A stretch of 64,000 nt of DNA from Escherichia coli (GTDB taxonomy: Bacteria; Pseudomonadota; Gammaproteobacteria; Enterobacterales; Enterobacteriaceae): assembly GCF_050320075.1 (NCBI RefSeq), contig NZ_CP190019.1. The stretch is one strand, 5' to 3'. This document shows, piece after piece, positions 44,282-45,568 of this stretch; the first letter of the stretch is position 1; the number at the start of each line of letters is the position of its first letter. The position numbers and the translations under genes are program-made. Below the pieces are notes generated by a model. That model did not search any database, was not told where the DNA came from, and saw only the letters and a list, made by a program, of their open reading frames with translations.

Positions 44282-45130
44282 TCAGATTTTCAGCCGGGCC
44301 TGTTCCTGCAGCAGTTCCAGATGATATGCAGCAATAGCGTTTACCACCCCTGCCGCCATCCGTGCGTCGGCGATCGCTGAGTGTGCCTGCCCTTCCCAGG
44401 TCAGTCCGGCCTGGCTGGCAGCACAGGCCAGTGAAATCGTGCCATAGCGGTTGGTGGCCCCATAATATCCTGCAGCCAGCTCCATCGCACAATATACCGT
44501 CATTTCTTCCAGCCAGTCAGCCGGATCGCTATGTGCGGCCGCAGTCTGTTTCAGAATGCGGATGTCGAACCGGGAATTAAAGATAATTACTGGTCGATCT
44601 CCGATTGCATGCCGCAGTTGCCGCGCCACATCTGTCCATGATGGTGCGCCGCAGAGAGCCTGCTCACTGATACCATGCACAGCGGCGGCCTGCGCCCCGA
44701 TGGCGACCGTGGGCTTCAGTCTGGTTTCAAATACCACCTGACCGGCCGCATCGGTCAGGCCGATTTCCAGGGCTTCCGCGGTATTATCCAGTCCTGTCGT
44801 TTCAGTATCCAGAAAGAGTGGTGCCAGACTCAGCCAGTCATATGCCTGCCGTGCCATCCGGCCACTGGTGCTGTTTAGTCGGGATAAAACGGAAAGCCGC
44901 TGGCCAGCCAGCTGTTGTTTACTCGTCAGAGGGCGTTTCTCACGCATCGGAACACAGTCTGCAATTCGGTATACAGCGAACCTGCCACCATAACTATTTT
45001 TATACCACTTAACCGGCTCAGCACCGGGGGCTGGCTTCATTCTGAATTCATCGCGCAGACGTCCTTTCGAGAAACACCTGTCTTCGGCAATCGCCTGCGC
45101 ACGTCTGGTGACCAGCTCATCATTATTCAT
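44282..45130 (-). CDS. DEDDh-type 3'-5' exonuclease domain protein with ~100-aa N-terminal extension (282 aa)
   Basis: Exo I motif LFLDTETTGLD, later …FNSRFD… and H-x4-D (HSAIADARM); N-terminal region unassigned. Confidence 0.7.
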   Translation of the reverse strand: MNNDELVTRRAQAIAEDRCFSKGRLRDEFRMKPAPGAEPVKWYKNSYGGRFAVYRIADCVPMREKRPLTSKQQLAGQRLSVLSRLNSTSGRMARQAYDWLSLAPLFLDTETTGLDNTAEALEIGLTDAAGQVVFETRLKPTVAIGAQAAAVHGISEQALCGAPSWTDVARQLRHAIGDRPVIIFNSRFDIRILKQTAAAHSDPADWLEEMTVYCAMELAAGYYGATNRYGTISLACAASQAGLTWEGQAHSAIADARMAAGVVNAIAAYHLELLQEQARLKI

Positions 45131-45175
45131 GGTTCTTGCATCTCCGTCAGACGTTTTTATATCCGGACAGCCCCT

Positions 45176-45457
45176 CTATGGCCACTTCTGTACAGTATGC
45201 AATACTCGCAGGATATACACTTTTCCCCACTGGCTGTCGACCTCATAAACCAGAACAAAATGCGGGTGAATAACCAGTTCCCGGGTACCTTCCACACGAC
45301 CGTTGCGGCCTTTATACGGCTGCCCGGCCAGGTTGCTGGCTGAATAACCAATCCGTTCGTCCAGTTCAATGGCGGCTATCAGGTTCTGCTCCGCAATGTA
45401 CTCACGAATGCGCTTCCTGTCCTGGCTGGCCAGCATGGTCCAGAATATCTCCATCAT
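45176..45457 (-). CDS. ParE/RelE-family type II toxin (93 aa)
   Basis: Size and C-terminal pattern …ELVIHPHFVLVYEVDSQWGKVYILRVLHTVQKWP typical of the ParE/RelE fold; start overlaps an upstream ORF stop (ATGA). Confidence 0.65.
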   Translation of the reverse strand: MMEIFWTMLASQDRKRIREYIAEQNLIAAIELDERIGYSASNLAGQPYKGRNGRVEGTRELVIHPHFVLVYEVDSQWGKVYILRVLHTVQKWP

Positions 45458-45530
45458 TTACCGGCGACTTTCCTGCTCATTTCATCCCGCCATGCAGCAG
45501 CGGAAGATTCGACCATGTCATGGGGAAGTA
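45458..45530 (-). pseudogene. Remnant of cognate antitoxin gene (last ~24 codons), truncated by transposon end
   Basis: Frame ending …MVESSAAAWRDEMSRKVAGK* overlaps the toxin start; upstream part of that ORF is transposon IR sequence. Confidence 0.4.
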
Positions 45531-45568
45531 GGGGAGCCCGCAGAATTCGGAAAAAATCGTACGCTAAG
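45531..45568. repeat. Tn21/Tn1721-family 38-bp terminal inverted repeat (outer end of resistance transposon)
   Basis: GGGGAGCCCGCAGAATTCGGAAAAAATCGTACGCTAAG. Confidence 0.75.

Follow-up and report, generated by a model that had tools for sequence, protein, structure and literature searches.

The closest described relatives of the locus are the yacAB and yacC genes of IncF/ColV and IncI plasmids (pS88 and R100-type nomenclature; 'toxin YacB' and 'antitoxin YacA' in NCBI annotation). The names yacA, yacB and yacC and the corresponding transcripts are documented for the ColV plasmid pS88 (PMC3438092), and ColV plasmids are reported to be enriched in yacAB (PMC4707298). Intact YacA is an 89-aa ribbon-helix-helix protein and its gene overlaps yacB (intact loci at 100% identity); its ribbon-helix-helix N-terminus gave weak RelB/DinJ and CopG matches. 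In Shigella flexneri pINV/pWR100, the same locus is also decayed and is stably carried (PMC9455713, PMC5658099). A more distant relative is PaaA2-ParE2 of E. coli O157:H7 (PDB 5cw7, 5cze). YacB residues 3-92 align with ParE2 (E 2e-7), its closest solved relative (PDB 5cw7), within the same ParE fold family but with low sequence identity. PaaA2 is short and has no DNA-binding domain, whereas YacA has its ribbon-helix-helix N-terminus.

The window analysed here is the whole stretch of 64 000 nucleotides. Plasmid pEC21-2 (168.8 kb) of strain EC21 is about 99.9% identical to it over 64 kb. A plasmid search gave 3,484 matching records, with yacB and '3'-5' exonuclease' as the annotations beneath the match. 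Intact ColV plasmids carry yacB and yacC at 100% identity, in the same gene order and with the same downstream genes. This shows the locus to be the yacA-yacB-yacC block in the backbone of an IncFIB/FIC multiresistance plasmid of ColV type. The block is a named one in IncF/ColV and IncI plasmids. Compared with the intact yacAB of these plasmids, yacA here lacks codons 1-65 and its promoter, and the toxin-antitoxin pair no longer exists: most of the antitoxin gene, with the promoter, has been lost at an end of Tn1721, a tetracycline-resistance transposon, which is an ordinary rearrangement scar. Shigella yacAB is the mirror image, with a frameshifted toxin gene and an orphan antitoxin (Orf176), whereas here it is the antitoxin gene that has been destroyed and the toxin gene that is whole. 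All the elements on which an earlier sequence-only reading was built (toxin, overlap, remnant, 38-bp inverted repeat and exonuclease) were recovered where it had placed them, to the base.

The yacB gene and the remnant of yacA

45176..45457, minus strand: yacB, intact ParE-family type II toxin gene (PF05016, TIGR02385 and ParE2 matches)
45454..45530, minus strand: yacA', the last 24 codons and stop of yacA, 77 nt (intact-locus alignment, tblastn)

The toxin gene can be read from ATG 45457 (93 aa) or, as in RefSeq, from ATG 45454 (92 aa). The minus-strand sequence at the yacA/yacB overlap is GGTAAATGATGGAG, so that the TGA of the upstream frame overlaps both candidate ATGs (ATGA, TGATG). YacB matched Pfam ParE_toxin PF05016 over the full model (residues 4-92 on model positions 1-89 of 89, E 1.6e-16) and TIGR02385 with 30.2 bits (cut-off 27.9), which bears out its earlier description as a ParE/RelE-like toxin. 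Its accession, WP_097309154.1, is common to truncated and intact loci. No inactivating substitution is therefore present, which speaks against the earlier suggestion of a toxin inactivated by mutation. In PADLOC, no defence-system match was obtained for yacB, for the 160-aa ORF described below or for the DUF6404 gene.

The peptide encoded by the upstream remnant, LPHDMVESSAAAWRDEMSRKVAGK, equals residues 66-89 of the full-length antitoxin. The intact locus L002 can be aligned up to 45530 (L002 position 5231); reconstructed from intact homologues, the antitoxin is the 89-aa YacA, its gene being cut after codon 65 exactly at the transposon inverted repeat. Gone with the 5' part are the start codon, the ribbon-helix-helix domain (residues 1 to about 45) and the promoter/operator. 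An intact yacA adjoins and overlaps the toxin gene in intact relatives but not here, and no autoregulated promoter/operator stands upstream of an antitoxin gene.

The missing part was sought elsewhere. With YacA as tblastn query, the match in the window was limited to residues 62-89, and neither the rest of the window nor pEC21-2 contained anything but the remnant; no intact antitoxin gene was encountered in either. Neither the window nor any part of the 168.8 kb of pEC21-2 contained the 622 bp that lie beyond the breakpoint in intact plasmids. The yacA 5' part with about 430 bp upstream was absent across the whole of pEC21-2, and L002 5425-5853, which lies upstream of yacA and has a palindrome by the start codon, was absent from both window and plasmid. 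Strain EC21, the one host whose replicons were all enumerated, has a chromosome and two plasmids, and yacA was not found on the other plasmid (IncX3). Among 5,426 complete E. coli genomes, yacA occupied 16 chromosomal places vs 1,718 plasmid places. The segment 18268..16929, which matched the intact locus and was considered as the displaced other half of yacA, was rejected, being a second IS2 copy and not displaced backbone.

The Tn1721 end and the edge of the resistance region

45531..45568, plus strand: 38-bp terminal inverted repeat of Tn1721, right-hand (IRR-2) end (exact match)
45564..46281, minus strand: Tn1721 (TnAs1-family) tnpA 3' fragment, truncated at 46281 (ORF, RefSeq, end of identity)
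46282..46319, plus strand: Tn2/Tn3 38-bp inverted repeat GGGGTCTGACGCTCAGTGGAACGAAAACTCACGTTAAG, which splits the Tn1721 tnpA remnant (direct reading)
46347..47597, minus strand: Tn3/Tn2 tnpA internal fragment, pseudogene (pSCZE2 RefSeq annotation)
47617..48435, plus strand: IS26, which truncates the Tn3 fragment, first of the four IS26 copies of the window (repeats, annotation)

Backbone identity stops at 45530 and the inverted repeat, GGGGAGCCCGCAGAATTCGGAAAAAATCGTACGCTAAG, starts at 45531. It occurs as a single copy in the window (0.00 expected by chance), and from its context we take it to be Tn1721 sequence. Older classifications assign Tn1721 to the Tn21 subgroup of the Tn3 family. Inward of the repeat follows the 3' end of tnpA, as is the case at a Tn1721 end. 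The ORF 45564..46238 lies inside the Tn1721 tnpA fragment and encodes the tnpA C-terminus; RefSeq annotation of pSCZE2, whose gene coordinates match the window coordinates here, gives a 'Tn3 family transposase' pseudogene at 45564..46280. At 46281, identity between the window and the sister plasmid pL65-2 ends. The repeat at 46282..46319 is presumably that of Tn2/Tn3, and ORFs 46314..47267 and 47307..47621 lie in the adjoining Tn3/Tn2 tnpA stretch. The terminal repeats of IS26 are at 47617 and 48422, with its transposase annotated at 47680..48384.

The Tn1721 right arm (tetR-tetA-pecM-delta-tnpA-IRR-2) is common in enterobacterial resistance regions; its 38-bp inverted repeat and tnpA 3' end are identical to those of the window. 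In pL65-2, the complete arm, EamA(pecM) and tet(A) included, is still joined to the same junction and ends in the same repeat, in agreement with the published layout of Tn1721 (PMC10464524). Compared with the full arm, the window keeps a remnant of 751 bp, cut by the Tn2/Tn3 repeat and then by IS26, without a second inverted repeat or target-site duplication. A second Tn1721 inverted repeat was found neither in the window nor in the whole of pEC21-2, and no 5-bp target-site duplication flanks the Tn1721 end; both marks of transposition as a whole unit are thus missing. The reciprocal junction (Tn1721 repeat, AAGTA and yacA 5' part) was not found in PLSDB. What that search returned instead were further Tn1721-end junctions in this locus, independent of the one here.

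The single inverted repeat, the missing yacA 5' part, the lack of a reciprocal junction and the nested cuts together identify the region as a mosaic and not a single insertion. The proposal that the whole multiresistance region had inserted into the antitoxin gene holds in part: its edge is indeed an old Tn1721 end in yacA, but the region did not arrive in one insertion. In the sequence of events that we reconstruct, the right end of Tn1721 landed in an ancestral yacA, separating codon 65 from codon 66. The remainder of the transposon, two-thirds of yacA at its 5' end, the promoter/operator and adjoining backbone were lost afterwards, through events that include Tn2 insertion and IS26 activity and possibly transposon-adjacent deletion. 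They left an unaltered ParE-family toxin gene on a plasmid with no cognate antitoxin gene.

The identical yacA'::Tn1721 junction was present in 73 PLSDB records and in 74 of the 5,426 complete E. coli genomes (76 records). These genomes came from humans, pigs, poultry, dogs, cats, yak, mink and water, and the plasmid lineage was also met in Shigella and Klebsiella records. With 73 PLSDB plasmids and 74 genomes sharing it, the junction seems to stem from a single old event in a plasmid lineage that has been successful.

Tolerance of the orphan toxin gene

Given the identical junction in these plasmids and genomes, the orphan state of yacB is tolerated and heritable. Our main reading, with a probability of about 0.6, is that of a ColV block carrying an unaltered orphan yacB, tolerated because its expression has fallen below what would do harm, with yacC as a mere neighbour. 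Judged from the DNA, yacB is most likely a silenced toxin gene. It would have lost the only promoter of the operon, which is expected within about 70 bp upstream of yacA, a region with a putative operator-like palindrome (TATATAC-TGT-GTATATA). It would also have lost the yacA start codon, on which its translation probably depended. The sole Shine-Dalgarno-like motif is an AGGA 13-16 nt from the yacB ATG; with the TGATG overlap, this distance makes translational coupling probable. The DNA upstream now consists throughout of promoterless 3' or internal tnpA fragments. A crude consensus scan of the minus strand over 45458-47800 gave no sigma-70-like site; the same scan also missed the native promoter of the intact locus, so this negative carries little weight. 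Some read-through into yacB from the tnpA fragments or IS26 may occur, and translation of yacB might start independently with the help of the distant AGGA. As pemIK, hok and sopAB are kept in pEC21-2, the loss of yacAB function would cost little.

A YacB intrinsically weak or non-toxic in these hosts, making the antitoxin dispensable whether yacB is expressed or not, is unlikely. The searchable literature held no experimental proof of YacB toxicity and no report of growth inhibition relieved by the cognate antitoxin, and the yacAB locus has been truncated repeatedly and in differing ways; Shigella pINV yacAB is listed as inactive (PMC9455713), though by a yacB frameshift (PMC5658099). YacB is, however, a full-length ParE-family protein, and about 2,000 PLSDB plasmids keep yacB with yacA as an overlapping operon, typical of working type II modules.

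Neutralization in trans had been raised by the sequence-only reading, and no cognate antitoxin was present on either EC21 plasmid. As a general explanation, YacB would be made and held in check by a YacA from the chromosome or from a co-resident plasmid, IncI1 and IncFII plasmids often carrying yacAB. The yacA 5' part is indeed found in 1,341 of the 5,426 complete E. coli genomes, nearly always plasmid-borne, and some plasmids have yacA in two copies. This reading is nevertheless improbable, for EC21 harbours only pEC21-2 and the IncX3 plasmid, both without yacA, and chromosomal copies are rare. The lineage occurs in 74 genomes, in many hosts and in Shigella and Klebsiella records, and a conjugative plasmid that needed a second plasmid would be severely handicapped whenever it entered new cells. 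Compared with an inactive or a trans-neutralized toxin, a gene silenced through promoter loss appears the better reading.

We consider it very improbable that the orphan yacB is not silent, being transcribed by read-through from the resistance region and tolerated or exploited by the lineage. If this were true, low-level gyrase poisoning may raise SOS, mutagenesis or persistence; cells may come to depend on an incoming yacA plasmid, with linked maintenance of the two plasmids; and occasional in-frame read-through of the TAG stop of yacB could give a YacB-YacC fusion.

The C-terminal half of ParD-type ribbon-helix-helix antitoxins binds the ParE toxin, and the yacA remnant is in frame with an ORF starting at GTG, so that its 24 residues could be translated from a 101-aa ORF (45454..45759, tnpA remnant across the inverted repeat) or from an internal ATG at residue 69. 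Neutralization of YacB by this peptide is hardly credible: of the region presumed to bind the toxin (residues about 46-89) only some half survives, the remnant lacks both a promoter and a Shine-Dalgarno sequence, a GTG in a foreign frame is an unlikely start codon, and no tool result supported expression of the remnant.

YacC, its neighbourhood and the meaning of the junction

44282..45130, minus strand: yacC, predicted 282-aa two-domain 3'-5' exonuclease (Pfam, PADLOC, model, RefSeq)
45131..45175, minus strand: yacB-yacC spacer, 45 nt (translation across the region)
43683..44165, minus strand: 160-aa conserved hypothetical gene, downstream of yacC (WP_001311056.1)
44176..44213, no strand: perfect 14+14-bp palindrome TTAATGCTAATGTA-N4-TACATTAGCATTAA, between yacC and the next gene (repeat matches)

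YacC is annotated '3'-5' exonuclease' in RefSeq (WP_023154360.1). Residues 106-262 matched RNase_T PF00929 (E 1.6e-14), and its sole PADLOC matches were generic DEDDh models (1.1e-27). D108, E110, D189, H250 and D255 were invariant among 26 homologues, giving the Exo I (DxE), Exo II (D) and Exo III (HxxxxD) motifs of the RNase T/DnaQ fold. The AlphaFold2 model (pLDDT 93.9) had the Pol III epsilon subunit (PDB 2gui; also 1j53) as best Foldseek match, with a TM-score of 0.79 normalised to the target. YacC thus combines a conserved alpha/beta N-terminal domain (residues 1-103) and a DnaQ-like DEDDh domain (104-282), and the description of a DEDDh exonuclease with an extra N-terminal domain agrees with the five catalytic residues, PF00929 and the model. 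Compared with DnaQ-like exonucleases, this conserved 100-residue domain is an addition seen only in the plasmid family YacC / Ycg4D. It gave no Pfam or NCBIfam match, and fold searches returned only weak DNA-binding-like similarities (Z <=6.0), from which no assignment was made; DNA binding is a possible role. Nothing on YacC function, nuclease activity or substrate was found in the searchable literature.

An unusual toxin-exonuclease module had been one of the options of the earlier reading; the two genes stand here in the order usual for yacB and yacC in the plasmid backbone, named in pS88 (PMC3438092). That the two would act as a functional toxin-exonuclease module with no need of YacA is scarcely believable. 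The two genes do lie side by side on one strand, share a reading frame and are separated by 45 nt (TAG stop, 15 codons, then the yacC ATG). Rare natural fusions exist on other contigs, where TAG is changed to CAG (fusion P0001, 384 aa, ParE and RNase_T), and 979 PLSDB records cover at least 80% of a yacC, yacB and yacA-remnant query, so that the genes are kept together there. However, conservation of the exonuclease next to ParE homologues did not hold up: yacC and yacAB occur apart in many plasmids, more than half of yacB-bearing plasmids having no adjoining yacC. Homologues of yacC at 59-73% identity follow a KfrA-like gene, lie near PemIK, divergent ParDE or CcdAB, or have no toxin-antitoxin neighbour, and the two-domain family extends to Pseudomonas, Vibrio, Shewanella, Acinetobacter and Francisella plasmids. 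From these comparisons, yacC is the usual downstream neighbour, a predicted and widespread plasmid-borne DnaQ-like exonuclease and no partner of the toxin.

The 160-aa gene product is present in intact and truncated plasmids and gave no NCBIfam or PADLOC match. A second copy of the palindrome lies at 43620..43657; the two hairpins had energies of -19.8 and -21.8 kcal/mol (z-scores -3.5 and -6.4), and the Rfam mir-155 match on them was rejected as spurious. The palindrome also occurs alone in other plasmids.

The finding itself matters little beyond bookkeeping. The yacC family, widespread on plasmids with its private N-terminal domain, is a more open biological question and is not tied to it. 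For this multiresistance lineage of ColV type (oqxAB, tet(A), class 1 integron), the exact yacA'::Tn1721 junction is a handy marker. For annotation and toxin-antitoxin surveys, it indicates that a 'toxin YacB' call need not mean a working module. The lineage is a natural experiment, in which a conjugative resistance and virulence plasmid bears an intact ParE-family toxin gene without its antitoxin in 74 complete genomes. Such carriage of an orphan yacB lends support to the common view that a type II toxin relies on its operon promoter and on translational coupling.

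Layout and identity of the locus

The sequence-only reading had described a ParE/RelE-like toxin gene without its antitoxin, next to an exonuclease gene and a transposon repeat. The region was read and its ORFs were listed, and this observation was confirmed at every coordinate:

44282–45130, minus strand, yacC ORF, 282 aa
45176–45457, minus strand, yacB ORF, 93 aa
up to 45530 only, minus strand, frame upstream of the toxin, its TGA overlapping the toxin ATG
45531–45568, inverted repeat GGGGAGCCCGCAGAATTCGGAAAAAATCGTACGCTAAG, sole copy in the window, none expected by chance

Beyond the repeat, the same strand encodes a Tn3-family transposase fragment that comprises the C-terminus. 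The 93-aa toxin is matched over its full length by Pfam ParE_toxin (E 1.6e-16) and exceeds the NCBIfam RelE/StbE cut-off. An RNase_T/DnaQ domain occupies residues 106–262 of the 282-aa protein. In PLSDB, 3,484 plasmids were matched by the query 44100–45530, with the annotations 'type II toxin-antitoxin system toxin YacB' and '3'-5' exonuclease' under the match. Plasmids 100% identical over the toxin start, such as pEcQE11-421-1 and a 2013C-4991 plasmid, carry an intact gene for an 89-aa 'antitoxin YacA'. Its stop overlaps the yacB start, and the N-terminus of the protein is ribbon-helix-helix-like (weak RelB/DinJ and CopG matches).

The ColV plasmid pS88 has, after repA1, genes named yacA, yacB and yacC ('putative exoribonuclease'), and all three were found to be transcribed (PMC3438092). 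The yacAB pair has been described as characteristic of ColV/ColBM plasmids (PMC4707298). The feature is genuine yet unremarkable, and all its components (YacAB, YacC, Tn1721, Tn2 and IS26) have already been named; the earlier interpretation is partly supported. The closest parallel is yacAB of the Shigella virulence plasmid, in which the frameshift lies in the toxin gene and it is the antitoxin that is orphaned (PMC5658099, PMC9455713), whereas in the window the toxin is orphaned.

Breakpoint and surrounding backbone

Identity with the intact locus stops exactly at 45530 (5231 in L002, the pEcQE11-421-1 locus), within yacA after codon 65; the remaining 77 nt correspond to residues 66–89. In the intact locus, the 622 bp that come next hold the remainder of yacA plus about 430 bp of upstream sequence, in which a TATATAC-TGT-GTATATA palindrome adjoins the yacA start codon. 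These 622 bp were not found in the window or in the complete 168.8-kb plasmid pEC21-2, the search giving only two short similarities (80–83%) at unrelated positions. Window and pEC21-2 contain one Tn1721 inverted repeat only, with no second copy. The sister plasmid pL65-2 retains the Tn1721 right arm (delta-tnpA, EamA(pecM), tet(A)) at this junction, as in the published layout IRL-mcp-res-tnpR-tnpA-IRR1-tetR-tetA-pecM-delta-tnpA-IRR2 (PMC10464524), whereas only 751 bp of the arm are left in the window. A constructed reciprocal junction (repeat, AAGTA and 5' part of yacA) gave no PLSDB match. From the single repeat, the lost 622 bp, the cut-down arm and the lack of a reciprocal junction, the resistance region is taken to be bordered by an old Tn1721 end lying within yacA. 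The proposal that the whole region had inserted into the antitoxin gene thus holds for the Tn1721 end but not for the rest: the region is a mosaic, not one insertion, with the target's other half lost by deletion.

Within the Tn1721 tnpA remnant, a 38-bp inverted repeat at 46282–46319, which we take to be that of Tn2/Tn3, is followed by a Tn3 tnpA fragment and then by IS26 at 47617–48435. Three layers of transposon scars are therefore nested directly upstream of the orphan toxin. Elsewhere, the Tn1721 end was found 2 bp past the yacB stop, with yacAB intact and yacC gone (NZ_CP090452.1 locus, L020, 1501–2150), and about 40 bp into yacB, with yacA orphaned (NZ_AP027801.1 locus, L019, 1501–1910). 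These other positions make yacABC a repeated landing or deletion site, with every kind of truncation.

Exactly this junction was found in 73 PLSDB plasmids. Among 5,426 complete E. coli genomes, 74 carry it (76 records), and their sources are humans, pigs, chickens, ducks, dogs, cats, yak, musk deer, mink and water. That so many plasmids share it to the base points to one event in an ancestor, passed on within a successful lineage. The junction is already annotated in dozens of RefSeq records; a literature search found no paper on it.

The window makes up the initial 64 kb of a plasmid of this ColV kind, with RepFIB, iss, the iro cluster, colicin genes and a Tmn anti-phage ATPase, then the resistance region. 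It is about 99.9% identical over its full length to pEC21-2 (NZ_CP060900.1). The pSCZE2 annotation (NZ_CP051224.1) has the same gene coordinates at 43000–49000, where the sequences are not base-for-base identical. The Tmn transmembrane ATPase (1,273 aa, 38790–42611, minus strand, PADLOC 2,057 bits, G+C 0.39) sits with colicin M and colicin B immunity genes and an integrase in a 10.9-kb segment (31937–42830) missing from L002 and from L003, the 2013C-4991 plasmid locus. An IS2 copy (16929–18268) and the adjoining GTP-binding-protein block, together 13891–18268, are inverted relative to their position beside yacA in L003, so the backbone has been rearranged beyond the Tn1721 event. In every ColV plasmid examined, yacC was followed by genes for a 160-aa protein without family match (43683–44165, minus strand) and a DUF6404 membrane protein (43034–43381, minus strand). 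A perfect palindrome, TTAATGCTAATGTA-N4-TACATTAGCATTAA, occurs after yacC (44176–44213) and after the 160-aa ORF (43620–43657); both copies form stable hairpins (−20 and −22 kcal/mol), and the palindrome is found alone in Salmonella, Klebsiella and Citrobacter plasmids. Upstream of yacA in L002 (5593–5666), 74 bp are 80% identical to the yacC 3' end (window 44347–44419), which suggests that yacAB(-yacC) may once have inserted into, or recombined beside, another yacC-like gene.

Proposed silencing of yacB

The lost DNA is precisely what a type II operon requires for expression of its second gene: both the putative promoter/operator upstream of yacA and the yacA start codon are missing. The yacB start lies inside the yacA stop (TGATG) and the sole Shine-Dalgarno-like element, AGGA, is 13–16 nt off, so translation of yacB probably depends on yacA being translated. 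The DNA upstream of the remnant consists solely of fragments of two transposase genes, none with a promoter. No sigma-70-like site was seen in a consensus scan of the toxin strand up to IS26; the same scan also missed the native promoter. From these losses we infer that yacB is silenced. It would be silent in transcription and translation and retained as a scar, plasmid stability presumably being maintained by pemIK, hok and sopAB. Read-through transcription of yacB is still conceivable.

An intrinsically weak YacB is rather unlikely; a literature search found no experiment demonstrating its toxicity. Inactivation by substitution, raised earlier, is contradicted by the RefSeq accession WP_097309154.1, common to junction plasmids and intact-yacA plasmids, and the toxin appears undamaged by this comparison. 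As the lineage is young, an undecayed yacB is uninformative about selection. Neutralization in trans is less probable again. By tblastn, only the YacA remnant was found in the window and in pEC21-2. Besides its chromosome, strain EC21 has two plasmids, pEC21-2 and a 46-kb IncX3 plasmid, the latter without yacA. A chromosomal copy in EC21 is unlikely because yacA is almost confined to plasmids: its 5' part was found in 1,341 complete E. coli genomes, at 1,718 plasmid versus 16 chromosomal places. Rescue by the 24-residue YacA remnant is hardly credible.

The YacC exonuclease

All five DEDDh residues of YacC (D108, E110, D189, H250, D255) are present, and none varies among 26 homologues, the most distant at 56% identity. 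The AlphaFold2 model is confident (pLDDT 93.9), and its catalytic domain superposes on the DNA polymerase III epsilon subunit. In these homologues the N-terminal region (103 residues) is conserved to the same degree as the catalytic domain; it is modelled (pLDDT 88.7) as a helix, a small sheet and a helical hairpin. In AFDB, this N-terminal domain is found only fused to such exonucleases, annotated YacC or Ycg4D, for example in Klebsiella, Pseudomonas, Shewanella, Vibrio, Acinetobacter, Aeromonas and Francisella. The yacB and yacC genes share a reading frame, with only TAG and 15 codons between them (45131–45178); a natural TAG→CAG variant gives a 384-aa ParE-exonuclease fusion (P0001; L018, 3001–4155) on contigs linked to cvaAB.

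Toxin and exonuclease had been suggested to form an unusual module. In PLSDB, 979 records cover at least 80% of the yacC, yacB and yacA-remnant query and 2,171 match the yacB/yacA boundary region; plasmids with yacAB and no yacC exist, as do plasmids with yacC and no yacAB. The yacC homologue is preceded by a PemIK pair and an unknown gene in Photorhabdus, overlaps a KfrA-like gene near divergent ParDE and CcdAB in Salmonella, and has no toxin-antitoxin pair in Erwinia. With yacAB and yacC occurring apart and yacC homologues in other contexts, a functional yacB-yacC module is most improbable, and yacC is a general gene of plasmid-maintenance regions.
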